Shown in pieces: positions 1,997-54,215 of a stretch of 64,000 nucleotides of DNA. Numbering within the stretch: position 1 is the stretch's first letter; each line of letters begins with the position of its first letter. The translations under genes and the position numbers were made by a program. The DNA is from an uncultured Elusimicrobia bacterium (GTDB lineage: Bacteria > Elusimicrobiota > Elusimicrobia > JACQPE01). The notes below the pieces were generated by a model. It ran no database searches. It was not told the origin of the DNA and worked only from the letters and a program-made list of their open reading frames with translations. The stretch is from the NCBI GenBank assembly GCA_964357255.1, contig CAYHKQ010000001.1, positions 5,018 to 69,017 of the forward strand, given 5' to 3'.

Positions 1997-3778
1997 ATGA
2001 AAAGACATGTCTTAAGTTTAGCCGCAGTCATTGTCGCCGGGCTTGGCGTTTCAATGGCTGGCGCCGTGGCCCGAGTGCCGGACCAAATGCGCATCAGCGG
2101 GATTAAGGGCGAGGTGCAGATTTGTGATCGCTCGAATAATTGCAATCCGGCCCAGGAGGGCCAGGCTCTCAATCAGGGCGATATTATTAAGGTAGGCGCG
2201 GACAGCAAGGCGCGCCTCGATCATGGCGCTAAGGACCGGTTTGAGCTTCGGGAGAGAAGCCGTGTGATGGTGGACCAGTTGACTCCGCGTGGATCGAGGC
2301 TTGAGCTTTTTGTCGGAACTCTCAAGGCCAGGATTAAGAGCGGCTTTTTCCAGCGCCGCGACGTTTCCGTGGTGACCGCAGTGGGCGTTATGGCTGTGCG
2401 GGGCACTGAATTTCTTTGCAAAGCGGATGAGAACGGCAATGTGCAGACGGACGTGATGTATGGCCGCGTGGACGTCCTCGATAGCGACGGCGGTTACAAG
2501 GACAGTCTTATTCAGGGTGAATCCGGCAATGCCAAGGGCGACGCTCCCAAGGATGACTATAAAGCGGAAGGAAAATCAGGCGAGGATAAGGCCGGCGAGG
2601 GTGATAAAGAGGGTCAGGGGGAAGGCGCTCCTCCTCAAATGGGTGATTCTAAGGGCGGCAAAGGCGATGGGCCGCAAGGCAAGATGGAAAAGGGCGAAAT
2701 GTCAAACGAATCTTTCGCTGAAGGCTTTGGCGGCGTTGAAGGTTTTCAGGCTTACGGCAGAGCGAACGAGGAAAGCAATGATAAGGCCCAAGATTTTGCC
2801 GGAAATGAATCGGCCAAGGTCAGCGACATTGTCAGTTCGGTCCGCGAGGATGATTTGACCAGCGGCCGAGCCCTGATTGACCGGCATGGCAATTTGGTCC
2901 GGGTTGAACAGCGTTTACAGCGGCCCACCGGGGATACCTTGCAATTTGTTAATTTCGTCAAGCGCGATGAGTATGCCTTTAAGGGCTATTTTGCTCCGGA
3001 TAATTTAACCAGCGCCGCGCGCAAGGACTATATGAAGGCAACGGTTACTTTTAATAAGAGCCTACCGGAAAGCATAGCGGACTGGCCGGCATTTTTCTCG
3101 GAGAACAGCGATGTCCTTAAGGTTACGGGGATGAACGCTGAATTAGCCAATGGGATTGATGTCAACAATCAGGATTACATCAAGTTTAATACGGCTTACA
3201 ATTCCGCCAAGAATGAAGTCGGCGGAGCGCAGTGTCTTGGCAAACAGACCCTGGGAACCGATTGTTTTGAAGAAACCATTGTCGGCTTCGTAAAGAATAC
3301 AACGAAAAAGGGTGAATGGCGGGTGTCGGATTGCAATTCGTCCAATTGCGGGAGCACGACCGCGGAGATTAAGAGTCATGGCGGCGACGTTGACGACGGT
3401 GGCGATGGCTCAGGCAATCTGTGGGGCAAGGCGGAGGCTCCTATCAACGTTGAAAATGAAATTATTGATACGGAGAATTTGGTGGTTGAGGCTAACGCGG
3501 CCACGGCGGAAATGTGGCTGTTGACGGAAAGCTATGCCATTGACAATAGCGGCAGTATTCTGAATATCAATAATATTTTAAACTCTAATATTACCGACCC
3601 ATTTACCTTTATGAAATCGGTAGGAATTGAGACTGTTATGACTCTCAGGACTGATAAATCCGCCAATGCCGGCCAAACGATTTTTCAAAACAGAGGGAAC
3701 ATTGATTTGGTTATAATTCCTGATCTGATGGTTGACATCGTTCAGAAATACGCCGGGCAGTTGGCGGGAAGTCTATAA
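1997..3778 (+). CDS. FecR-domain secreted protein (sigma-regulator/FecR-like fold) with a long Gly/Lys/Asp-rich linker and C-terminal domain
   Basis: ATG at 1997 with GGAGGT 7 nt upstream. Signal peptide; FecR-type segment QGDIIKVGADSKARLDHGAKDRFELRERSRV...AVRGTEFL. Divergent from the CHASE2 kinase, a commonly seen pairing. Confidence 0.6.
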   Translation: MKRHVLSLAAVIVAGLGVSMAGAVARVPDQMRISGIKGEVQICDRSNNCNPAQEGQALNQGDIIKVGADSKARLDHGAKDRFELRERSRVMVDQLTPRGSRLELFVGTLKARIKSGFFQRRDVSVVTAVGVMAVRGTEFLCKADENGNVQTDVMYGRVDVLDSDGGYKDSLIQGESGNAKGDAPKDDYKAEGKSGEDKAGEGDKEGQGEGAPPQMGDSKGGKGDGPQGKMEKGEMSNESFAEGFGGVEGFQAYGRANEESNDKAQDFAGNESAKVSDIVSSVREDDLTSGRALIDRHGNLVRVEQRLQRPTGDTLQFVNFVKRDEYAFKGYFAPDNLTSAARKDYMKATVTFNKSLPESIADWPAFFSENSDVLKVTGMNAELANGIDVNNQDYIKFNTAYNSAKNEVGGAQCLGKQTLGTDCFEETIVGFVKNTTKKGEWRVSDCNSSNCGSTTAEIKSHGGDVDDGGDGSGNLWGKAEAPINVENEIIDTENLVVEANAATAEMWLLTESYAIDNSGSILNINNILNSNITDPFTFMKSVGIETVMTLRTDKSANAGQTIFQNRGNIDLVIIPDLMVDIVQKYAGQLAGSL

Positions 3779-8173: not shown

Positions 8174-8245
8174 TGCCCCCGGGCGGAATCGAACCACCAT
8201 CTTCTCCTTAGGACGGAGTAACTCTATCCATTGAGCTACGGGGGC
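8174..8245 (-). tRNA. tRNA-Arg (anticodon CCT)
   Basis: Reverse complement folds as a cloverleaf: acceptor GCCCCCG/CGGGGGC, D-arm GCTC-AATGGAT-AGAG, anticodon stem ACTCC/GGAGA with loop GTCCTAA (CCT), T-arm GGTGG-TTCGATT-CCGCC, discriminator A, no encoded CCA. Confidence 0.8.
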
Positions 8246-8298
8246 GCTTTTGAAAGCGAGAGATCGTGGGAGGGATATATCTGCAGACAAGGGCAATC

Positions 8299-8859
8299 TC
8301 AAAATTGAATCAAAGAATAGAGAGGATACCGGCTGATTTTTTGACGGCCGCCAAGAGCGGCGAGTTCAATAAGAAAGGCTATGCCGATAATTTCCCCCCC
8401 CGCCTTTTCGACAAGTTGAGCCGTGGCTAGGGCTGTGCCGCCGGTGGCCAGGACATCGTCTATAATTAGCGTTTTTTTGTTTCCGGAAAAGGCATCCGCA
8501 TGAATTTCGAGAGCGTCCTGCCCGTATTCAAGCTCATAGGTGACCGAGAGGGTTTTGGCCGGGAGCTTTTTTGGTTTTCGGACCGGAACAAAGCCCGCGC
8601 CGAGGTTGTGGGCCGCGGGCGCCGCCAGGATGAATCCTCGCGCCTCAATGCCTACGACGTAATCAGGCGGCTTTTGGGAATATGGGCCGGCCAATAATTC
8701 AATAGTTTTCCTAAACAGTCCGGGATTTCCAAGAAGCGGCGTAATGTCCCGGAATAAAATTCCAGGCTTTGGGAAATCAGGGATATTGCGGATAGAGGCC
8801 CCAATGGCCTCTATGTCATCTTGAGTTTTTTGCCTAGAGTCAAGTTTTGTTTGGACCAT
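8299..8859 (-). CDS. apt: Adenine phosphoribosyltransferase
   Basis: DFPKPGILFRDITPLL, GIEARGFILAAPAAHNLGAGFVPVRKPKKLP, and the PRPP-binding LIIDDVLATGGTALA. Annotated start overlaps the 3' end of the sigma-factor gene by about 49 nt. Confidence 0.85.
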   Translation of the reverse strand: MVQTKLDSRQKTQDDIEAIGASIRNIPDFPKPGILFRDITPLLGNPGLFRKTIELLAGPYSQKPPDYVVGIEARGFILAAPAAHNLGAGFVPVRKPKKLPAKTLSVTYELEYGQDALEIHADAFSGNKKTLIIDDVLATGGTALATAQLVEKAGGEIIGIAFLIELAALGGRQKISRYPLYSLIQF

Positions 8860-9773
8860 ATAATTCCTCGCGTTAAGCGTAGAACATTTTTTGATTTTTC
8901 TTCACGGCGTGTCTGGGCCGCCGTGGCCCCGGACTCCACCAACCCCATGCGCTGGGTAATTCGGCGCAGACGTTCCAATGCGCGGGTTTCGATTTGCCGG
9001 ACTCGTTCGCGCGAAAGTCCTATATTATCCCCCACCTCTTCGAGGGTGCTGATCTCACTGCCTTTTAAGCCATAGCGCAGATGGAGCACCTGGCGTTCCC
9101 GTGGGGCCAACTCCTTGAGGGCACGATTGAGCTCGTCGTGGAGTTTTAGGACCCCTATTACGCGGTCCGGATTTTTTCCCTCTTCGTCCTTGATAATTTC
9201 TTCGAGGGCTAGATTTTCATCGCCCCCGATAGGACTTTCCAAGGAGCCCATATCCTTGGCCGCCTCCGCGGCATTGACAATGCCTTTGATTTGCCGCGAT
9301 GTCAGTCCCGTCATTTTGGACATTTCCGTGATGGTCGGGTCGCGGCCCAGTTTGCCGTGCATCCGGTCCCAGGTTTTAAACCATTTCCGCAACGCTTCCC
9401 AGGCATGGGGGGGAATTCGGATGGTTTTCGATTGCTCCTCGATCGCCCGGCGGATTCCCTGCTCGATCCAATAGGAGGCGTAGGTGGAAAACCGGAAGCC
9501 TTTTTCCGGGTCGAACTTGTCTATAGCGTGCATGAGGCCGAGATTTCCCTCTTCAATCAGATCGAGAAATTCCATGCCGGCCCGGTGGTATTTTTTGGCG
9601 ATAGGAATAACCAACTTGAGATTTGTTTCCATGATGGTTTTTTTGGCCGCGCTGAAGCCCCGTTTGGCTTTTTTCCAGAGTTTGTACATCTCCTCCCGGG
9701 ACATTTCCGGGAGGCGCTGGATGCCTTGGAAATATTGCCGCGTTAAATCGTAGGTCGAGTGATTCTCAGCCAT
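8811..9773 (-). CDS. RNA polymerase sigma-70 family factor (group 2/RpoS-RpoD-like)
   Basis: Region 2 NLKLVIPIAKKYHRAGMEFLDLIEEGNLGLMHAIDKFDPEKGFRFSTYASYWIEQ. Region 3/4 with LSRERVRQIETRALERLR (HTH). Confidence 0.85.
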   Translation of the reverse strand: MAENHSTYDLTRQYFQGIQRLPEMSREEMYKLWKKAKRGFSAAKKTIMETNLKLVIPIAKKYHRAGMEFLDLIEEGNLGLMHAIDKFDPEKGFRFSTYASYWIEQGIRRAIEEQSKTIRIPPHAWEALRKWFKTWDRMHGKLGRDPTITEMSKMTGLTSRQIKGIVNAAEAAKDMGSLESPIGGDENLALEEIIKDEEGKNPDRVIGVLKLHDELNRALKELAPRERQVLHLRYGLKGSEISTLEEVGDNIGLSRERVRQIETRALERLRRITQRMGLVESGATAAQTRREEKSKNVLRLTRGIIWSKQNLTLGKKLKMT

Positions 9774-9774
9774 A

Positions 9775-10053
9775 TTAATACGTTATATCAAAGGAATGGA
9801 ATTCATTGGCGCATGAAGCCCACTCAACCTCCAGCGCGTCAACCTTGGCCCAGGGGTGTTGAGTTCGCAATGTCTGGATAAAAGTTTCAATCAATGACTC
9901 CTCTCCTTCCGTCGTAACTTCAACGGAGCCGTCCTCTTTGTTTTTAACCCAGCCGGCCAAGCCGTTTTTTTTGGCGATTTTTTGTACGAAAAAACGATAG
10001 CCTACCCCCTGGACCTGCCCGCGTACCGTCAGATGCGCCTTTTTGGTTGCCAT
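9775..10053 (-). CDS. acyP: Acylphosphatase
   Basis: 92 aa; acylphosphatase signatures VRGQVQGVGYRFF and GWVKNKEDGSVEV. Confidence 0.8.
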   Translation of the reverse strand: MATKKAHLTVRGQVQGVGYRFFVQKIAKKNGLAGWVKNKEDGSVEVTTEGEESLIETFIQTLRTQHPWAKVDALEVEWASCANEFHSFDITY

Positions 10054-10193
10054 TCGGCATTAAGGATATTAAAAAAGTGATTTATAATCTATGGTCGGAA
10101 GGTAAATTAAGGCCGACAAGTCCGGAAAGAAAAAATTATTTTTCTAACCTTGCGCACATTGTCCACCTTGTCCGCTTTATCTGCTTGTGTTGT

Positions 10194-10265
10194 CGGGGGT
10201 TGGCGTAGTGGTAGCGCGCACGCTTGGGGTGCGTGAGGTCGTGGGTTCAATTCCCACACCCCCGA
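10194..10265 (+). tRNA. tRNA-Pro (anticodon GGG)
   Basis: CGGGGGT-TG-GCGT-AGTGGTA-GCGC-G-CACGC-TTGGGGT-GCGTG-AGGTC-GTGGG-TTCAATT-CCCAC-ACCCCCG-A. Anticodon loop TTGGGGT. Confidence 0.8.
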
Positions 10266-10294
10266 TTCTCTAGTATTTTTTTTCTAAATTATTA

Positions 10295-11500
10295 ATGATC
10301 CCCAAAAAAGTCCTTATCCTCTACGGCGCCCCTGGTTCGGGCCATGCCCAAGTGGCTTCGGCGTTGGCCCAAGCGATTAATAAAACTCCGGGTTGGATGG
10401 CCCACGAAGATCATCTCTTGCGTCATTGGCCGGCCTTGGGCGGGCTTTTGTTGCGGTTATATCGCTGGGTTCTTGGACATATGGCGGGGGCCTGGGGGCG
10501 TTTACACGGCAATCCTCGCTACTTGGCGATGGCTCGGCGAGCGGAAAGCGTTCTTTACGGCCTGGACATTTTTCGGATTCAAAAAATTCTAGACCGGCAT
10601 CAGCCTCATTTAGTGATCGCCGTCCATGTTTTGCCTCTCAGGTGCCTCGCAGTTTTAAAAGCCGGCGGCAAATTTTCTTTGCCTTTGTATGCCGTCATTA
10701 CCGATTTTTGGGCGCACTCTTACTGGCCCGTAGCAGGCGTTGAGCGCTACTTTGCTTCGAGTAAATGCTCCGCGGATGATTTAATCGCCGGCGGCGTTCC
10801 GGCTCGGCGCGTTGCGATCACGGGCATTCCGCTACGTGAAGAATTTCGTTCCCATCCTTCTAAAATTTATTGCCGCCTGAGGACTAATTTTGATCCGATT
10901 CGCAAGCTAATCCTGGTGATGGGCGGTCGTTATGGGATTTTTCCTTTCGAGGAGTTACTTGAAGCCGCGATGAACGTTTCGGTTGCGCGGCAATGGCAGT
11001 GGGCATTTGTTTTTGGCGGCAATGATCGGGCCTTAAGGCGCGCTCGTGAGAATTTGCCGCCGGAGGAGTCCCGGCGCATTCGCTTGACGGGGTTTCTTGA
11101 GGACATGGCTCCATTGATGGCGGCTTCGGATCTTTTGATCACGAAAGCCGGAGGTTCGACCTTGGCTGAGGCGCTGGCCTGCGGGGTAGCGATGATTCTG
11201 TGCCGCCCCATTCCCGGACAGGAAGAAGGCAATGCTCGTTTTTTAGTAAGCCTGGGAGCGGCGTTGCGTGCCGACACAGCCGGCGTCGCCCTGCAAATGG
11301 CTGCCGGACTTCTTCAATCGTCCGACAAGATCGAGAGCATGCGAGAGGCCGCGCGGTCGCTGGCCTATCCCGACGCGGCCGGCGAGATTGCCCGGAGGTT
11401 GGACTCCCCGCTTGTTTTTGGTGGAGCCGAGGGGGCTCGAACCCCTGACCTCTTCCTTGCGAAGGAAGCGTTCTCCCAACTGAACTACGGCCCCATTTAA
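10295..11500 (+). CDS. GT28-family glycosyltransferase (MGDG-synthase/UgtP/MurG-like diacylglycerol glycosyltransferase)
   Basis: N-terminal KKVLILYGAPGSGHAQVASAL, typical of MGDG-synthase-like N-domains, and a C-terminal GT-B domain (LITKAGGSTLAEALACGVAMIL). The last ~26 codons read across the antisense of tRNA-Ala, so the true C-terminus is uncertain. Confidence 0.65.
   Translation: MIPKKVLILYGAPGSGHAQVASALAQAINKTPGWMAHEDHLLRHWPALGGLLLRLYRWVLGHMAGAWGRLHGNPRYLAMARRAESVLYGLDIFRIQKILDRHQPHLVIAVHVLPLRCLAVLKAGGKFSLPLYAVITDFWAHSYWPVAGVERYFASSKCSADDLIAGGVPARRVAITGIPLREEFRSHPSKIYCRLRTNFDPIRKLILVMGGRYGIFPFEELLEAAMNVSVARQWQWAFVFGGNDRALRRARENLPPEESRRIRLTGFLEDMAPLMAASDLLITKAGGSTLAEALACGVAMILCRPIPGQEEGNARFLVSLGAALRADTAGVALQMAAGLLQSSDKIESMREAARSLAYPDAAGEIARRLDSPLVFGGAEGARTPDLFLAKEAFSQLNYGPI
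11422..11494 (-). tRNA. tRNA-Ala (anticodon CGC)
   Basis: Reverse complement GGGGCCG-TA-GTTC-AGTTGGG-AGAAC-G-CTTCC-TTCGCAA-GGAAG-AGGTC-AGGGG-TTCGAGC-CCCCT-CGGCTCC-A, with the G3:U70 Ala identity pair. Confidence 0.85.
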
Positions 11501-11536
11501 GTCTAAATTAATGGCGACACAAATGTTTAAAAAATT

Positions 11537-11609
<73 letters not shown>

Positions 11610-19246: not shown

Positions 19247-19324
19247 TTATGAGATTGCTTCGTCCGAGGCTCGCAATGATGGAAAGGACCTGAGCAGTCA
19301 TTCATATATTGCAAAATTTAAGGC

Positions 19325-37339: not shown

Positions 37340-37366
37340 GGGACGAAAAATATTCTAACTTACTTA

Positions 37367-37518
37367 GTAACTATTCAGGTGCGGCGCTCCCCTTGCTGTC
37401 ATTCCCGCGAAAGCGGGCCGTTCGCAGGGCTCGCGGCACCTTGGGGCGCCGGAGGCGCTGATCGGGAATCCAGGCCCCGACCCCCGCCTTCGCGGGGGTG
37501 ACGGACCTGAACAGTTAC
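37367..37518 (+). mobile_element. MITE-like repeat, copy A (152 bp)
   Basis: TIRs gtaactattcagg / cctgaacagttac (12/13 inverted). 8-bp flanking direct repeats cttactta / cttgctta. Internal perfect hairpins cccgc-GAAA-gcggg and cccccgc-CTTC-gcggggg. About 95% identical to copy C. Confidence 0.7.
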
Positions 37519-37556
37519 CTTGCTTATAAATAATAATTTCAAGAGGAGGCGACGCC

Positions 37557-38894
37557 GTGAAAACTTTAACCAAACCGATCGCTAAAAAAGAGAATATGTC
37601 GTTGAATAGCGCGCACTGGAAGGACCGCGAACGCTATGTCACCGGCAGTTTTTACCATTACACCCGTATTTTTATTAAAGAGGCGAGCGGGGCCGTGATG
37701 TGGGACGTGGACGGCAAGCGCTATTTGGATTTCACCGGAGGCATCGGCGCCTTGAACGTGGGCCATTGCCATCCAAGAGTGGTCGAGGCCATCCGCCGCC
37801 AGGCCGGGGAGTTTCTGCACACCTGTTTTCCAGCGATCGCTTACGAAAATTATGTGCGCGTATGCCAAAAATTATGCGAGGCCGTGCCAGGAAATTTTCC
37901 GAAAAAAGCCATGCTCGTTAACAGCGGCGCCGAGGCCGTTGAGAACGCGGTTAAGTTTGCCAAGAGTTATACCAAGCGGAGCGCCGTTATTTCCTTTGGG
38001 CAGGCTTTTCATGGCAGGACGCTTTTGGCCTTCACGTTGACCGGCAAGGAAAATCCCTATCGCCTGGGCCTGGGGCCTTACGCGGCCGACGTTTATCACG
38101 CGTATTATCCTTATTCTTACCGGCCTCCCGTGGGAGTGGCGAGCCGCGACGTATGCGCTTATGCGTTGGGCCGCTTGGAGGAGATGTTCCATACCCAGGT
38201 GGATCCCAGCCGCGTGGCCGCGATTTTGGTGGAGCCGGTGCAAGGCGAGGGCGGCTTTGTGGTGCCTCCGACGGATTTTCTCCCCGCCCTTCGTAAAATT
38301 TGCGACCAGCACGGGATCGTCTTAATCGTGGACGAGGTGCAGACCGGCTTTGGCCGCACCGGCAAGATGTTCGCGCATGAGCACGCGGGGATCACATCGG
38401 ATCTCGTGACCGTGGCTAAATCCATCGCGGCCGGGCTTCCCTTGGCCGGCGTGGTGGGCCGGGCTCAGATTATGGACGCCGCGGAGGAAGGCGGCGTGGG
38501 TAGCACTTACGGAGGCAATCCGGTAGCTTGCGCGGCGAGCCTGGCAGTGTTTGAAATTTTTGAGCAAGAGAGGCTCCTGGAGCGCGCCAGAAAAATCGGT
38601 TTAACTATCGAGACGCGTTTTAAGTCCTGGGCTAAACAGATGCCGATGGTCGGCGAGGCGCGGGGCTTGGGAGCGATGCAGGCCGTAGAACTCGTGGCGG
38701 ACCGCTCCACTAAAGAACCGATGCCCTTAAAAACCATGAAGGCGATTTTGGGCGATTGCTCAAAAAAGGGATTGATGATTCTTAAAGCCGGAGCCTACGG
38801 CAATGTGATCCGCACCTTAGTTCCCCTGGTGGCTACGGATGAGGAAATTACCGAGGGGCTGGACATTTTGGAATCGGTGTTAAAGGAGCTTTAA
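37557..38894 (+). CDS. Class III (omega) aminotransferase (GABA/putrescine aminotransferase-like)
   Basis: AT-III fold; the PLP-lysine region VDEVQTGFGRTGKMFAHEH...TVAKSIAAGLPL; 445 aa. Confidence 0.8.
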   Translation: MKTLTKPIAKKENMSLNSAHWKDRERYVTGSFYHYTRIFIKEASGAVMWDVDGKRYLDFTGGIGALNVGHCHPRVVEAIRRQAGEFLHTCFPAIAYENYVRVCQKLCEAVPGNFPKKAMLVNSGAEAVENAVKFAKSYTKRSAVISFGQAFHGRTLLAFTLTGKENPYRLGLGPYAADVYHAYYPYSYRPPVGVASRDVCAYALGRLEEMFHTQVDPSRVAAILVEPVQGEGGFVVPPTDFLPALRKICDQHGIVLIVDEVQTGFGRTGKMFAHEHAGITSDLVTVAKSIAAGLPLAGVVGRAQIMDAAEEGGVGSTYGGNPVACAASLAVFEIFEQERLLERARKIGLTIETRFKSWAKQMPMVGEARGLGAMQAVELVADRSTKEPMPLKTMKAILGDCSKKGLMILKAGAYGNVIRTLVPLVATDEEITEGLDILESVLKEL

Positions 38895-38895
38895 G

Positions 38896-40437
38896 ATGAG
38901 CGCGGCCACTGTCGAAAAGAAGCAAGGTCTGAAAACTCAAAAGGCTCGCGAATTTAAAATGTTGCTCGGCGGGCGCTGGTCTGGCGCGGCAAGCGGAGCC
39001 ATAAGGACCTTAGTGAATCCCGCCAATGCCAAGCCCTTGGCTACGGCGCCGGAGGCCGGCGTCAAGGACGTAAATTTTGCCGTGGCCCAGGCCAGGAAGG
39101 CTTTTGAAGACGGCCGCTGGTCCAAGAAACCCCCCTGTGAACGTTCGCTAACCCTCTTTCGCTTGGCCGACAAGATCGAACAAAATATTGACGCTCTGGC
39201 CGAACTCGAAATAGCCAATTGCGGCAAGCCCCGAAAATTGGCGCGCGAAAGTGATTTGCCTTTTGCCATTGATAATGTGAGGTTTTTTGCGGGAGCCCTC
39301 AGAACATTGGGCGGCTCCGCGTCGCTCGAGTATGCCGGCGGTTGCACAAGTATTATTTGCCGCGAACCCATCGGCGTCGTGGGGCTCGTGGCCCCGTGGA
39401 ATTACCCTTTTTTGATGGCAGTTTGGAAAATTATGCCGGCCCTGGCCGCTGGTAATGCGGCTATTTTTAAGCCTTCGGAATTGACGCCGCTGACTGCGCT
39501 TGAACTGGGGCGTTTGGCTTTGGAGGCCGGGATACCCGAAGGCGTTTTGCAAATCGTGACCGGAGCCGAAGAGGCGGGCCGGGCGCTTAGCGCGCATCCC
39601 GGGGTGGACATGATTTCTTTTACCGGGGACACGCAAACCGGCAAAAAAATTCTGGCCCAGGCCGCGCCTACTCTGAAAAAATGCCACATGGAGCTTGGCG
39701 GCAAAGCGCCTTTTGTCGTTTTTGCCGATGCTGATTTAGAAGCCGCGCTTCAAGGGGCCGTGGTGGCGGGCGTCGTCAATGCGGGGCAGGATTGCACCGC
39801 GGCCACGCGCATCTATGTCGAGGAAAAGCGTTATGACGAATTTCTAGAGAGGTATGTGAAATTAATGAAAACTGTCCGCGTGGGCGATCCCTTGAACAAA
39901 CTGACCGACATGGGCCCTTTAATCAGCAAGAATCAGAGGGATCGGGTGGAAGGCTTTGTCCGCCGCGCCTTGTCCGCCGGCGCCAAGGCCCTTTGCGGCG
40001 GCGAGCGGCCTTCCTCGGCCGAAACCAAGGACGGTTATTATTTTCTTCCTACCGTGATCGTCGGCGCCAAGCAAGATTCTGAGATTGTGCAGAATGAGGT
40101 TTTCGGCCCGGTTGTTTGCGTTTTGCCTTTTAAGACCGAAGAGGAGGCTGTCCGGCTGGCTAATGATGTGCGCTATGGCCTGGCTTCGAGCGTATGGACC
40201 AAGGATGTTCATAGGGCTTGGCGGGTTTCAGCCGCGCTCAAATTCGGCACGGTCTGGGTTAATGATCACTTGCCGCTGACATCCGAAATGCCGCATGGCG
40301 GCTGTAAGTCCAGTGGTTTTGGCAAGGATTTATCGGTTTGGGCCCTCGAAGAGTACACCCAGATCAAACATATCATGGCCGACACCACTGGCCTGGCCCG
40401 AAAACCCTGGCACTACACCGCCTTTGGCTCAGTCTAA
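38896..40437 (+). CDS. NAD-dependent aldehyde dehydrogenase (aminobutyraldehyde/betaine-aldehyde DH-like)
   Basis: Catalytic glutamate MELGGKAP; NAGQDCTA; 513 aa. Confidence 0.8.
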   Translation: MSAATVEKKQGLKTQKAREFKMLLGGRWSGAASGAIRTLVNPANAKPLATAPEAGVKDVNFAVAQARKAFEDGRWSKKPPCERSLTLFRLADKIEQNIDALAELEIANCGKPRKLARESDLPFAIDNVRFFAGALRTLGGSASLEYAGGCTSIICREPIGVVGLVAPWNYPFLMAVWKIMPALAAGNAAIFKPSELTPLTALELGRLALEAGIPEGVLQIVTGAEEAGRALSAHPGVDMISFTGDTQTGKKILAQAAPTLKKCHMELGGKAPFVVFADADLEAALQGAVVAGVVNAGQDCTAATRIYVEEKRYDEFLERYVKLMKTVRVGDPLNKLTDMGPLISKNQRDRVEGFVRRALSAGAKALCGGERPSSAETKDGYYFLPTVIVGAKQDSEIVQNEVFGPVVCVLPFKTEEEAVRLANDVRYGLASSVWTKDVHRAWRVSAALKFGTVWVNDHLPLTSEMPHGGCKSSGFGKDLSVWALEEYTQIKHIMADTTGLARKPWHYTAFGSV

Positions 40438-41007
40438 TTTTTCTGCGGCAGTTTCTTCCTCTTTGAGTAATTTCTCACCCATTTGAGAATGACCGCGCAG
40501 GGTATCAGCTTCCCTTTCCGCGCTTTTGGCGGGGAAGTAGGCGACAGCCCATCCTGCCACAAATAAGCCGGCTCCGCCGAAAAAGAGGAGAGCCCCCAGA
40601 ACCGGCAATCCGCTCATTCCAATGGCCACGCTTGCCCAAGAGGTTGCGAATCCTGGAATGGCAAGAGACCACGATAAAACATGCAACGCGGTTGCCTTTG
40701 AGGAGGCGTTTTGCGCCTTTTCTTCCCAGTAATTTTTTGCGGTTTTAAGAAGAAATTGATTACGTTGCCGTTGCTTCATTTGGTGGTTTTTACGCTCAAG
40801 CCCGGCATCGTCCTGGGCGATATCTCCGATTTGGACAGGCGCATTTGGCGTATTGCCTTGAGGCGCGGCGCCATGCATTAAATTTTCCACGATTATTTTG
40901 CCTTGAATTGCTTGATCTTGCGAAGTGGGGCTGGGGTTGGCCAAAAGACTAGCAACACAGCCACCGATCGCACTGACAGTAATAAGAATTTTTTTGTTGG
41001 TTAGCAT
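40429..41007 (-). CDS. Hypothetical membrane protein
   Basis: Start taken at MLTNKK (AAGGAG SD); the longer ORF-track start lacks an RBS. N-terminal TM/signal, C-terminal hydrophobic segments. Confidence 0.4.
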   Translation of the reverse strand: MLTNKKILITVSAIGGCVASLLANPSPTSQDQAIQGKIIVENLMHGAAPQGNTPNAPVQIGDIAQDDAGLERKNHQMKQRQRNQFLLKTAKNYWEEKAQNASSKATALHVLSWSLAIPGFATSWASVAIGMSGLPVLGALLFFGGAGLFVAGWAVAYFPAKSAEREADTLRGHSQMGEKLLKEEETAAEKLD

Positions 41008-41128
41008 AGTCGTTCTCCTTCGTTGTCTCCGCTTTATACTCGGACAAGGGGCTTGCTGACTGCCACCTTTCGTCCGCTGTTTACATATATATTGTAACAA
41101 AGTGGAAGGGGTCATTCATTTTATTTTT

Positions 41129-41356
41129 GTAACTACTCAGGTTCCTCTTCCCCGTCATTCCGGCGAAAGCCGGCCGTTCGCAGAGCTCGCGGCACCTTGG
41201 GGCGCCTGAGGCGCTGATCGGGAATCCAGGATTTCATTCTGCAAATCAAGAACTGGATACCGGCTTTCGTCCCGTCAGGAGACGGGACAGTCCCCTCAAT
41301 TTTAATAGAGGGTTGGGACGCCGGTATGACGAATCCAAAAAAACCTGGGTAGTTAC
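41129..41356 (+). mobile_element. MITE-like repeat, copy B (228-bp variant)
   Basis: TIRs gtaactactcagg / cctgggtagttac. Perfect 8-bp TSD ttattttt on both sides. First ~105 bp homologous to copies A and C, then a different module with the hairpin gtcccgtc-AGGA-gacgggac. Confidence 0.7.
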
Positions 41357-48914: not shown

Positions 48915-48920
48915 GAAATC

Positions 48921-49030
48921 GTAACTGATCCGTGATTCCGCAGTTGGCTTGTCACCACCGCGAAGGCGGGGCCCAGACTCCGACGAGACCCGGATTCCCG
49001 CTTTCGCGGGAATGAGTGTGCCAAGAGGGT
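48921..49030 (-). repeat. Degenerate, inverted copy D of the MITE-like repeat
   Basis: Begins gtaactgatcc and contains ccaccgcgaaggcgggg and cccgctttcgcgggaatg. These are reverse complements of the two hairpin modules of copies A and C, in swapped order. The far end has decayed. Confidence 0.4.
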
Positions 49031-49599: not shown

Positions 49600-50595
49600 T
49601 TATGGAACGCTGATCGTTTCGAGGATTTCGTGGATGATGTCTTCGCTCGTGATGTTTTCGGCTTCGGCTTCGTAGCTTAGAAGCACGCGGTGGCGCAGGA
49701 CGTCAAAGGCGATAAGGCGGATGTCCTCAGGCGTGACATAACCCCTGCCTTCGAGAAAGGCGGAGGCTTTGGACGCCTGGGCCAGATAGAGCGTGGCCCG
49801 GGGACTCGCGCCGTAGGCGATCAAGGATTTGAGTTTTTCAAGTTTGTGGTCCTGTGGGAACCTGGTGGCGAAGATGATTTCTATGATGTAGTCCTTGAGT
49901 TTGGGGTCGAGGTAAATTTGGCTCAACGTTGCGCGGGCTTGTAAAATTTCTTCGGTCTTAAGGAGCGGATGGGGTTCGCGCCGGCCGTTTTGCCCTGCGT
50001 AGAGGTCTAAAATTTCAAGCTCGGATTTTTTTGAGGGATAGGTGACTTTTAGTTTTACCAAGAATCGGTCCACCTGGGCCTCGGGAAGAGGGTAGGTGCC
50101 TTCCTGTTCAATCGGATTTTGCGTGGCCAGGACTAAGAAGGGTTCCGTTAATTTGAAGGTTTCATCCCCAATCGTGATTTGTCGCTCTTGCATCGCTTCC
50201 AGAAGGGCTGATTGGGTTTTGGCCGGCGCGCGATTGATTTCGTCAGCCAGAACGAAATTGGAGAAAATCGGGCCTTTTTTGACGATAAAGGTTCCGTCTT
50301 TGGGATGAAAAATCGGGGTTCCCACGATGTCGCCCGGCAGAAGATCGGGCGTAAATTGAATCCGGGAGTAATCCGCCTGGATGAGTCGGGCAAGGGTTTT
50401 CATCGCGAGCGTTTTGCCCAGGCCAGGCACGCCTTCTAAGAGGATATGCCCGTTTGCCAAGAGGGCCAGAATGGCTTTGTGAACTAAATCTTCCTGCCCG
50501 ATGATGAATTTTTCAAGCTCCCGCCGGAGTTCTTGAAATGGCAGGGCCTGTTGACGGATGATCTCAGAGATTTGCTTTAGACTTAATGTTTCCAT
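49600..50595 (-). CDS. MoxR-family AAA+ ATPase
   Basis: Walker A GVPGLGKT, Walker B VLADEINRA, sensor motifs; 331 aa. Confidence 0.9.
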   Translation of the reverse strand: METLSLKQISEIIRQQALPFQELRRELEKFIIGQEDLVHKAILALLANGHILLEGVPGLGKTLAMKTLARLIQADYSRIQFTPDLLPGDIVGTPIFHPKDGTFIVKKGPIFSNFVLADEINRAPAKTQSALLEAMQERQITIGDETFKLTEPFLVLATQNPIEQEGTYPLPEAQVDRFLVKLKVTYPSKKSELEILDLYAGQNGRREPHPLLKTEEILQARATLSQIYLDPKLKDYIIEIIFATRFPQDHKLEKLKSLIAYGASPRATLYLAQASKASAFLEGRGYVTPEDIRLIAFDVLRHRVLLSYEAEAENITSEDIIHEILETISVP

Positions 50596-51431
50596 AAAAA
50601 TGGTTTCACCTCGTATTGAATTTTTCCTTTTTCGGGCCAGGCTTTCAAGAGCCGATGCATGGCCATGACCCGCCAGCCTGGATCCGGGCTGAATTTTTCC
50701 GAGCCCACGACTAGGCGGCGGCCTTCATTCTCAAGCCGCAGGGCCATGCGGTTGTAGGGCTGATCTCTCAGGCATAAGGACTTGCGCTCAACGAGCATTA
50801 GCGAGTGGCATAAGGCCCAGAGATTCCGGCCGTCGGAGATCGCGGCGTTTAAGCCCGTGTAGGGAAATTTCCAATTATTTTTTTTGGATTTGGGCAGGGA
50901 TCGCCACAATTGCCAGATTTCTCGCACCGTTTCAACCAGCGCTTCCGGGATTTTTTTGGTTTTGTCATACCACTTGCACAGAATCCAAAAGTAGATTTCG
51001 CTGTCGTTTTTTCCCTCAAGTTTGCGACGATACGCTCCCAGGAGCTGATCGCGCGCCGCGGCCGCGATGTTGAGAGTTCCGTTATGGGCGAAGGCCAGAC
51101 GGCCAAAGCCGAAAGGCTGGTTATGCTCGCGCGCGATTAAATCTTTGCGGGGAAGTTTCAGGGGGTTTGAGGCGGCGCGAATATGGGCGATGACGATGCG
51201 CGAGGAGCTCTTAGCGGCCTGTTCGATGAACAGGGGGCTTTCTCGGTAAGCGGGGTTGGGGCTTTTGAAAATGTGAAAACCGCCCGGGGCGAGCGTTGCG
51301 ACGCCCCATCCGTCCTTTTGAAGAAAATTTTTTTTTGCCTTGCTCTGCGCCAGCAATGAAGCGCGGGATTTAACGAGATATTCCGAGGGATTGTGGGGCG
51401 TTACGCTGAGTTGAGCAAAAATTCTGCACAT
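50583..51431 (-). CDS. Class II (Ntn) glutamine amidotransferase domain protein (YafJ-like)
   Basis: N-terminal nucleophile MCRIFAQLS; the GATase2 fold; 282 aa. Confidence 0.65.
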   Translation of the reverse strand: MCRIFAQLSVTPHNPSEYLVKSRASLLAQSKAKKNFLQKDGWGVATLAPGGFHIFKSPNPAYRESPLFIEQAAKSSSRIVIAHIRAASNPLKLPRKDLIAREHNQPFGFGRLAFAHNGTLNIAAAARDQLLGAYRRKLEGKNDSEIYFWILCKWYDKTKKIPEALVETVREIWQLWRSLPKSKKNNWKFPYTGLNAAISDGRNLWALCHSLMLVERKSLCLRDQPYNRMALRLENEGRRLVVGSEKFSPDPGWRVMAMHRLLKAWPEKGKIQYEVKPFLWKH

Positions 51432-51478
51432 AAGGATGTCCCCATTATTTTATGTTTTTGATAAAATATATTTTTAAG

Positions 51479-51630
51479 GCAACTATTCAGGCGCGGCGCT
51501 CCCCTTGCCGTCATTCCCGCGAAAGCGGGCCGTTCGCAGGGCTCGCGGCACCTTGGGGCGCCGGAGGCGCTGATCGGGAATCCAGGCCCAGACCCCCGCC
51601 TTCGCGGGGGCGACGAACCTGAGCAGTTAC
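51479..51630 (+). mobile_element. MITE-like repeat, copy C (152 bp)
   Basis: gcaactattcagg ... cctgagcagttac. Direct repeat atatttttaag abuts both ends. Same two hairpins as copy A. Ends 22 bp upstream of the aspA-like start codon. Confidence 0.7.
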
Positions 51631-51652
51631 ATATTTTTAAGTTAAATTTCCG

Positions 51653-53053
51653 GTGTGGTCAATGGAGAATCGTAAAGAAAAAGATTCGCTAGGCGAACGC
51701 GAGGTTCCTAATTCCGCTTATTGGGGCATTCAAACCCTTCGAGCGCAGGAAAATTTTTCTATCAGCGGACGGCGCGCTGGCGCTGTTTTTGTGCGGGCCT
51801 ATGTTTTAATTAAAAAGGCCTGCGCCTTGGCCAATAGGGATTTGGGCGCCCTGGGCATGGACCGGGCCGAAGCGATTATGGCCGCGGCCAATGAAGCGCT
51901 CGAAGGCAAACATCTCGATCAATTTGTCATTGACATTTATCAGGCCGGCGCCGGCACATCGTTTAACATGAACGTCAACGAGGTGTTGGCTAATCGGGCA
52001 TTGGAAATCATGGGCAGGAAAAAGGGCGAGTATGAGGCCCTTTCCCCCAATGAACATGTCAATTGCGGGCAATCCAGCAACGACACTTTTCCAACGGCGA
52101 GTCATTTGGCGGTTCTTTTGGAGTTTCCCCGGCTCTCAAAGGCCATTGAAACTCTTGTAAAGGCTTATGCCGCCAAGGGCAGGGAGTTTGCCGATGTTCT
52201 TAAATCCGCGCGCACGCACCTACGGGACGCCGTGCCGATTACATTGGGTCAGGAGTTTGGGGCTTACGCGGTGGCGATCGAGGAGTGTCACACGCAAATG
52301 GCCGGGGCGAGCGACTTGTTACGCTACGTTGCCCTGGGGGGCACGGCGGCCGGCACCGGAATGAACGCGGCCAAGGGTTTTCGCCAGGCCGCGATCAGTT
52401 CCTTGGCTAATCTTTCGGGCGTCAATCTCTATGCGGCCCGGGACGCGAGGTACGCCCTTCAGAGCCATTTTCCGCTGTTGGCCTTTTCCGGCGCGATGCG
52501 GAACTTTGCTTTGGAGTTGATTCGTCTTGCCAACGATCTTCGGCTCTTGGCCTCCGGGCCTTTGACGGGATTGGGCGAAATTACGCTTCCAGCCGTTCAG
52601 CCGGGCTCTTCGATGATGCCCGGCAAGGTTAATCCTTCTATGGCCGAGGCGCTTAATCAAATCGCTTTTGACGTGGTGGGCGCGGATGCTACGACTGCGC
52701 TCGCGTCCCAAGCCGGGCAGTTGGATCTTAATGTCATGACGCCTATTTCTATTTTTCGGATTTTAGATTCCATGAGTATTCTTGGCAACTTTTTACCTGT
52801 GTTCGCTAAAAAATGCGTTGAAGGGATTACCGTGGACCGCGAGCGTTGCCGTTATTATTTCGGCATTAGCCCTTCGTTGGCTACGGCGCTGACTCCAAAG
52901 ATCGGTTATTTAAAATCCGCTGAAATTTTTAAGGAGTGCGTTGAAAGCAAGACGCCGGTCCCAGATTTGGCGCGGCAAAAGAATCTGATCAGCGAAGAAG
53001 AGATGAATCGTCTTTTTGATCCCAAGGCGCTCACGGGTGAGGCGGACGCGTAA
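51653..53053 (+). CDS. aspA: Aspartate ammonia-lyase / class II fumarase-family lyase
   Basis: The fumarate-lyase signature GSSMMPGKVNPSMAE, and QAGAGTSFNMNVNEVLANRA. The QxGAGTS and NEHVN contexts are closer to aspartase than to FumC. Confidence 0.75.
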   Translation: MWSMENRKEKDSLGEREVPNSAYWGIQTLRAQENFSISGRRAGAVFVRAYVLIKKACALANRDLGALGMDRAEAIMAAANEALEGKHLDQFVIDIYQAGAGTSFNMNVNEVLANRALEIMGRKKGEYEALSPNEHVNCGQSSNDTFPTASHLAVLLEFPRLSKAIETLVKAYAAKGREFADVLKSARTHLRDAVPITLGQEFGAYAVAIEECHTQMAGASDLLRYVALGGTAAGTGMNAAKGFRQAAISSLANLSGVNLYAARDARYALQSHFPLLAFSGAMRNFALELIRLANDLRLLASGPLTGLGEITLPAVQPGSSMMPGKVNPSMAEALNQIAFDVVGADATTALASQAGQLDLNVMTPISIFRILDSMSILGNFLPVFAKKCVEGITVDRERCRYYFGISPSLATALTPKIGYLKSAEIFKECVESKTPVPDLARQKNLISEEEMNRLFDPKALTGEADA

Positions 53054-53913: not shown

Positions 53914-53980
53914 CGTGAGTTTACTGCGGTTGCGTAATTCCGGGGACACCCCACTTAATTCATATGTTCTAAAATCCTCC

Positions 53981-54090
53981 ATGGCCCGCATTGCCAGAAT
54001 CGTTGCTCCGCATATCCCCCACCATGTCACGCAAAGAGGAAACCGAAGGCAGAATACTTTCTTTTGCGACGATGATTACCAACTGCGTTT
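53981..54090 (+). pseudogene. Truncated RAYT/IS200-like (HUH Y1) transposase, N-terminal ~37 codons only
   Basis: MARIARIVAPHIPHHVTQRGNRRQNTFFCDDDYQ matches the RAYT/TnpA-IS200 N-terminus (G..YHVTxRGNRRQxIF.DDxD). The frame then runs into tandem repeats. Confidence 0.55.
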
Positions 54091-54094
54091 TTCG

Positions 54095-54215
54095 GTCCAA
54101 AGTGGCCACCCTTTTCGGCGGCATGACGGCCACCTATTTCGGAACATGACGGCCACCCTTTTCGGCCGGAAGACGGCCACTTTCTAGATCCTTCCGAAAG
54201 GGTGGCCATCATGCC
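54095..54215. repeat. Tandem ~23-bp iterons (4 direct plus 1 inverted copy), putative IS21-family multiple terminal repeats
   Basis: gtggccacccttttcggcgg / gacggccacctatttcggaa / gacggccacccttttcggcc / gacggccactttctagatcc, then inverted ccgaaagggtggccatcatg. Located 85-200 bp upstream of the istA start. Confidence 0.6.

Follow-up and report, generated by a model that had tools for sequence, protein, structure and literature searches.

MITEs are short elements (<~600 bp), which possess terminal inverted repeats and target duplications and are present in multiple copies. Such elements are well known from the promoter regions and leaders of Neisseria, enterobacteria, pneumococci and Coxiella. 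The Correia elements (CREE) of Neisseria, which are MITEs of ~100-155 bp and possess terminal inverted repeats, often lie directly upstream of genes (PMC10969869). Co-transcribed Correia leaders fold into long hairpins, which are cut by RNase III, and the elements can supply promoters (PMC10969869). The ERIC/IRU repeats and the pneumococcal BOX, RUP and SPRITE repeats are small, imperfectly palindromic intergenic repeats; they are transcribed as parts of mRNAs, whose stability or termination they can affect (PMC10969869, PMC3049150). In the IS66 family, insertion generates 8-bp direct repeats and the terminal repeats are 20-30 bp and start with GTAAGCG (PMC11946415).

In the window (the whole 64-kb stretch of DNA that was analysed, from an uncultured Elusimicrobia bacterium), copies of a short repeated element are present (Table 1). 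This element is a MITE, that is, a non-autonomous DNA transposon, because it combines short size, terminal inverted repeats, target-site duplications (TSDs) and multiple copies. It does not contain a transposase ORF; the ORFs that overlap copies in two other contigs (L002 and L004) are short and spurious. Copies are present at six or more distinct loci, counting the window and other contigs from this groundwater metagenome. Copies A and C have the same orientation and make up a direct-repeat pair of 150 nt that is 96% identical. A 20-nt core motif was found five times in the 64-kb window and not at all in 100 shuffles. When up to three mismatches were allowed, the 15-nt end sequence GTAACTATTCAGGTG was present at both ends of the intact copies A, B and C (7 matches, against 0.5 expected from shuffles). 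The terminal inverted repeats (GTAACTAYTCAGG) start with GTAAC and are clear over 13-15 bp, with looser pairing to ~21 bp. The TSDs directly abut these repeats and match at 11 of 11 positions in copy C, 7 of 8 in copy A and 8 of 8 in both copy B and a copy in L002 (GTTTTCGT). Thus, the TSD is 8 bp in three of the four intact copies and 11 bp in copy C. All four of these clear TSDs are T-rich on the plus strand of the element.

Table 1 Coordinates of the MITE copies, flanking genes and candidate promoter sequences in the window
Feature	Position	Strand	Description
MITE copy C	51479-51630	+	152 bp, 70% GC; terminal inverted repeats GCAACTATTCAGG / CCTGAGCAGTTAC
Copy C, left TSD	51468-51478		ATATTTTTAAG; identical 11-mer on the right, 51631-51641
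MITE copy A	37367-37518	+	152 bp, 68% GC; terminal inverted repeats GTAACTATTCAGGT / ACCTGAACAGTTAC
Copy A, left TSD	37359-37366		CTTACTTA
Copy A, right TSD	37519-37526		CTTGCTTA; 7/8 match to the left TSD
MITE copy B	41129-41356	+	228 bp; exact 8-bp TSD TTATTTTT at 41121-28 and 41357-64
Copy D, degenerate short relative	~48920-49021	-	Between convergent genes; uninterrupted hairpin ATTCCCGCGAAAGCGGGAAT
Copy E, probable remnant	19247-19303	+	Exact right-end motif ACCTGAGCAGT; plus-strand ATG 19325 is 26 bp downstream
aspA, aspartate ammonia-lyase	51662-53053	+	NF008909, 591 bits (cutoff 510)
Class-II glutamine amidotransferase-like gene, divergent	50583-51431	-	GATase_4 in the syntenic locus L006
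gabT-like transaminase, 4-aminobutyrate-type	37557-38894	+	TIGR00700, 526 bits (cutoff 507)
Aminobutyraldehyde dehydrogenase	38896-40437	+	Next gene after gabT
Extended -10-like box TGATAAAAT, putative ancestral aspA promoter	51459-51467	+	11 bp left of copy C
Block AAAAATATTCTAACTT	37346-37361		Left of copy A; conserved in orthologs L012 and L013
Hybrid promoter candidate	37508-37537	+	TGAACA in the right terminal repeat of copy A, 18 bp, AATAAT in the flank

Copy B has the terminal repeats and the left 100 bp in common with copies A and C, whereas its right half differs. The right half of copy B carries its own inverted repeat of the GTCATACCGGCG...GCCGGTATCC type. The composite structure of copy B suggests that the MITE family is modular. 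In one internal hairpin of copy B, there is a compensatory double change (from CCCGCG..CGCGGG to CCGGCG..CGCCGG). The hairpin that is whole in copy D is split by a GC-rich insert of ~49 nt in copies A, B and C. Remnant E is located in a third divergent intergenic region, and a hairpin of the CATTGCGAGCC...GAAGCAATC type precedes its right-end motif. In other Hainich contigs, the copies at 1315-1360 of L002 and 6589-6610 of L004 have a common aberrant end, CTCATCGTTACCCATATCTTT, which is joined at the loop of a CCCCCGC..GCGGGGG hairpin. These two copies look like hairpin-mediated deletion derivatives, in which a mini-element of ~45 bp is left. A gene start is located 33 bp downstream of the aberrant-end copy in L002.

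Among the described systems, the Correia elements are the best functional analogy for this family. However, Correia elements duplicate a TA dinucleotide, whereas 8-11 bp are duplicated here; furthermore, an internal promoter was not found in the Elusimicrobiota element, and the host phylum is also different. We take the terminal repeats of Correia elements to have no sequence similarity to the ends of this element. The 8-11-bp TSDs and the unrelated ends rule out membership of the Correia family. The GTA...TAC ends suggest a TA duplication of the IS630/mariner type, but in copy B and the L002 copy the GTAAC/GTTAC ends are directly bordered by exact 8-bp repeats, and this reading was therefore also rejected. 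The ERIC/IRU and BOX/RUP/SPRITE repeats are unrelated in sequence, and the Elusimicrobiota element lacks the true terminator-like hairpin of SPRITE. REP/BIME sequences, which are mobilized by RAYT (Y1) transposases, resemble the element in being GC-rich intergenic hairpin repeats. However, REPs are not known to have terminal inverted repeats of such a type or to generate target-site duplications, and the TSDs exclude a REP/RAYT reading of the element.

The exact 8-bp TSDs that flank the copies point to a DDE cut-and-paste enzyme. Both the 8-bp TSD and the GTAA start of the ends are like those of IS66. In contrast, the ends begin with GTAACTA instead of GTAAGCG, with four bases shared; moreover, the clear repeat is 13-15 bp and the TSD of copy C is 11 bp. 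Based on the 8-bp TSD and the GTAA termini, an IS66-type transposase is a possible mobilizer. Neither an autonomous IS with the same ends, nor a full-length parent, nor an IS66-type transposase was found in the 64-kb window or the fetched loci.

The hairpin ATTCCCGCGAAAGCGGGAAT also occurs in the gonococcus, in a 20-mer that is presumably a neisserial dRS3-type repeat. dRS3 repeats are targeted by an IS110-type recombinase. The 20-mer (ATTCCC-N8-GGGAAT form) is identical to an N. gonorrhoeae sequence printed in PMC7593972. The likeness to dRS3 is limited to this 20-nt hairpin and nothing suggests common descent or IS110-type targeting; we take the match for a coincidence.

When the 20-nt core was searched in 185,579 species-representative genomes, a set that lacks the source genome, only a single chance match was obtained, in a Myxococcales MAG, without surrounding similarity. 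A scan of a metagenome collection with the same core returned Hainich contigs only, and a search of a plasmid database with the element gave no match. Contigs from well H41 of the Hainich aquifer are identical to the window across copies A and C, and a look-up with the GabT sequence returned an identical Hainich contig. The identical filled sites were assembled from several independent samples of one aquifer well. The closest named relatives of AspA and GabT are from Elusimicrobia/Elusimicrobiota MAGs.

The first-pass annotation had placed MITE copies upstream of two plus-strand metabolic genes, at distances of 22 bp (from GTG 51653) and 38 bp (from GTG 37557). The ends, the TSDs, the near-identical pair of copies and the gene families agree with this description, and both distances are correct for the start codons that were used. 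For aspA, however, translation more probably begins 31 bp from copy C, at the in-frame ATG 51662. This ATG is preferred because an identical database protein has 463 aa and the orthologs begin with METRKEKDSLG. The GTG start of gabT is backed by a strong ribosome site (AAGAGGAGG) and by the ortholog start MKTLTKP. In the minus-strand ORF at 40429-41115, the start of the longest ORF is probably wrong, and the ATG at 41007, which is preceded by AAGGAGAA, is likelier. Elsewhere in the window, 3.2 tandem copies of a 24-nt unit, GGCCACCCTTTTCGGCAGCATGAC, are present at 54104-54180, inside a small ORF (53915-54187).

Relatives possess the same loci without the element. The AspA orthologs with 80% (L005) and 71% (L006) identity have upstream regions of 44 and 78 bp, respectively, and the same divergent amidotransferase gene; an ortholog with 68% identity (L010) has 47 bp upstream and a MoxR-type gene directly opposite. 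In the case of GabT, the upstream regions are 47 bp (L012, 80% identity) and 58 bp (L013, 64% identity), and both orthologs are opposite the same divergent VWA/BatA-like operon as in the window. When these five loci were searched with nhmmer, no copy of the element was found. Removal of the element and one TSD copy from the window leaves intergenic regions of 67 bp (aspA) and 57 bp (gabT), which are like those of the relatives. The filled and empty aspA sites were compared manually; MAFFT misplaced the right flank. Because the element-free orthologous loci have equally short spacers, copies A and C are recent insertions. Thus, judging from these orthologs, the comparison shows that both copies were inserted recently into very compact, AT-rich divergent promoter regions. 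In more distant AspA orthologs (L016 and L017), the upstream contexts differ and synteny is gone. In another relative with 70% identity (L009), the region upstream of aspA (3057-3467) is 411 bp and full of other small palindromic repeats, namely GACTAAAGTC three times and GTCATTCTGAGCCGCAGGCGAAGAATC. Therefore, the region before aspA holds small repeats in another lineage too.

The first-pass annotation had further regarded the position of the copies as a recurrent gene-proximal arrangement. Intergenic DNA is ~8% of the window; around the insertions, it has 27-35% GC once the element and one TSD copy are removed, as compared with 53% for the window. As a null model, we used the distances of AT-rich (>=6/8) intergenic 8-mers of the window from start codons: 37% of these 8-mers are located within 40 bp upstream of a start codon. 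Two of the four window copies (five copies if remnant E is counted) are within 40 bp of a start. Under the 37% null, the probability of at least two of four is ~0.47, and the common orientation of the two copies gives p = 0.25 at best. Therefore, the "recurrent" placement is the chance expectation, and this part of the annotation is not supported. Moreover, copy D and the first L002 copy are located between convergent genes, the latter directly after a terminator, and copy B is 121 bp upstream of the minus-strand gene, given its probable start at 41007. A preference for AT-rich 8-mers and the concentration of such sites at promoters would bring copies to within a few bases of -10 boxes, on the downstream side. 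The right end is the one that faces the gene in all four copies or remnants close to a gene, namely A, C, E and the second L002 copy (p ~0.125, with ~8 copies examined). This same-end-facing pattern could hint at a non-random orientation.

Each of the four syntenic loci (the window, L005, L006 and L010) has a TAAAAT upstream of aspA, 11-31 nt from the ATG; because the window and L005 share ancestry, the independent occurrences are only those in L006 and L010. The box has the TGATAAAAT form in the window and L005, and outside the box the spacers of L006 and L010 could not be aligned. Among the plus-strand candidates for aspA in the window, this box scores best (5/6, with a TG extension); a convincing -35 sequence for it was not found, and Elusimicrobiota promoters are uncharacterised. 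The left TSD of copy C begins at the base immediately after the box. A separate TAAAAT, likewise left of copy C, precedes the start of the divergent amidotransferase-like gene by 15 nt. Because the conserved -10 box is left of copy C, transcription most likely includes the whole MITE, in a leader of ~190 nt. Accordingly placed, the box is in line with the earlier suggestion that the hairpins could be present in a 5′ UTR. For aspA, a structured leader is thus the likeliest reading, with the transcription start read from the -10-like box alone. More widely in the window, 5/6 matches to TATAAT (TAAAAT, TAGAAT and TATATT) are found 9-17 nt before the starts at 1985, 19325, 25347, 37339, 51431 and 56907. 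Boxes so close to the starts suggest that many genes of this genome are transcribed with very short leaders or as leaderless mRNAs.

We propose, with a probability of about 0.6, that the MITE is read through as a leader at aspA, and likely also at gabT, as the outcome of a recent AT-targeted insertion, which is probably tolerated. The element would prefer AT-rich 8-mers, which are concentrated at promoters in a compact genome. Transcription of aspA would start at ~51473-51476, that is, ~7 nt past the box and inside the left TSD, and RNA polymerase would read through the whole MITE. The aspA leader would thereby change from ~24 nt to ~190 nt. The element RNA would fold on itself, with its ends paired as a long interrupted helix, and the ribosome-binding region would stay about as accessible as before. 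If expression is affected, the most plausible route would be a change in how stable the transcript is or how it is processed at the long double-stranded stem. Read-through of this kind is also likely at gabT; alternatively, a hybrid promoter with the -35 sequence in the right end and the -10 sequence in the flank may act there.

RNA folding calculations are consistent with this proposal in several respects. The terminal repeats are predicted to form a duplex of -18 to -23 kcal/mol, and the extended arms of copy A form an interrupted helix of ~27 bp. In copy C, a weak AU-rich terminal stem is followed by ATATTTTT. The mean unpaired probability in the region of the ribosome site and start codon of aspA is 0.40 with the element and 0.45 without it; for the gabT ribosome site, the values are 0.52 and 0.58, respectively. 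Because the accessibility is almost unchanged, the element behaves as a self-contained domain. A self-contained fold that spares the ribosome site suggests that the insertion is probably tolerated and has at most a modest effect on expression. An anti-Shine-Dalgarno pairing was considered and rejected: in one minimum-energy fold, CUCCCCUUG of the element pairs with CAAGAGGAG of gabT, but an ensemble calculation from the inferred start disagrees. The hairpins had also been described as terminator-like; however, we found no intrinsic terminator (stem and T-run) inside copies A and C on either strand. By analogy with the Correia and ERIC repeats, the most plausible effect, if there is any, would be on transcript processing or stability.

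It is possible, although unlikely, that the element instead donates a promoter, as the first-pass annotation had also suggested. In that case, an outward -35-like hexamer (TGAACA/TGAGCA), which is 5 bp from the right end, would act with a -10 sequence in the flank and drive gabT, possibly also aspA. Upstream of gabT, the hybrid TGAACA-18-AATAAT matches at 9 of 12 positions and is the sole sigma-70-like match of the scan, so that the best-scoring site is the hybrid and not the site left of copy A. AT-rich targets make -10-like hexamers frequent beside the element end, and both hybrid and element-borne promoters have been documented for Correia elements and other MITEs (PMC10969869). However, ~0.2 such sites per region are expected by chance. 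The equivalent site at copy C is poor (TGAGCA-17-TAAATT, 7/12), and in the second L002 copy the distance from the end hexamer to the flank CATAAT is only 12 bp. Furthermore, the gabT start predicted from the hybrid falls within the Shine-Dalgarno sequence, and an ancestral candidate exists left of copy A. On its minus strand, the conserved block AAAAATATTCTAACTT contains TAGAAT, 12 nt before the ATG of the divergent gene. On its plus strand, it contains TATTCT, a candidate gabT -10 sequence, and TTGAAC is found 18 bp upstream (8/12). Thus, promoter donation keeps a weak hybrid candidate at copy A and loses ground at copy C, and no promoter-like site was found inside the GC-rich element. As read from these motifs, the position of the gabT promoter, left of the element or hybrid, is ambiguous.

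We consider it rather improbable that the insertions are disruptive. This explanation assumes that the promoter context is separated, or that read-through is partly terminated or destabilised, so that aspA and gabT expression is lowered and the copies are mildly deleterious or a drifting polymorphism. Consistent with it, the start codon is separated from the -10 box by an additional ~160 bp of GC-rich hairpins, and an upstream -35 or UP sequence of the divergent promoters would be displaced. On the other hand, there is no canonical terminator, both ORFs are intact, and identical filled sites are present in several independent samples of the aquifer well.

That the element is a selected, mobile cis-regulatory leader (an RNase III site, an attenuator or a protein-binding RNA), which brings aspA and gabT with the aldehyde dehydrogenase gene under common control, seems very improbable to us. 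Both genes belong to amino-acid or nitrogen catabolism and have near-identical leaders in the same orientation; moreover, the ~27-bp interrupted helix of copy A, the U-rich tract (AUAUUUUU) that follows the terminal stem of copy C and the compensatory change in copy B would suit such a module. However, the other copies are located between convergent genes or far from genes, and the placement fits the AT-target null. In a consensus fold of the four full-length copies, no compensatory change was found among 44 predicted pairs. At the gathering threshold, Rfam matches in the window were only four tRNAs (8174-11609), with none on the element, and at E<=1 two chance-level matches were obtained. As compared with dinucleotide shuffles, the fold energies (z = -0.38 and -2.45) are not clearly better and are unexceptional for the composition. 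Covariation, Rfam and ribosome-site accessibility thus gave no signs of selection for a regulatory role. Furthermore, the element is absent in the 80%-identical relatives and is therefore not part of conserved regulation. It is hardly credible that the host has co-opted the element as a mobile, self-folding 5′-leader module, the right end of which is always toward the gene, for one post-transcriptional control of aspA and gabT with its aldehyde dehydrogenase gene (e.g. by RNase III at the ~27-bp helix or by attenuation at the terminal stem and T-rich TSD).

The element represents a previously undescribed MITE family, the behaviour of which is already known from other MITEs and the regulatory effect of which is putative. 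It therefore adds a new family and not a new principle. If read-through at aspA holds, this locus would be a clean natural case of a MITE that gives a near-leaderless mRNA a structured leader of ~190 nt. The filled and empty sites are directly comparable, in a phylum with almost no experimental genetics. In addition, these loci may give first hints of the promoter architecture of Elusimicrobiota, with -10 boxes 9-17 nt from the starts and divergent promoters within ~50-70 bp.
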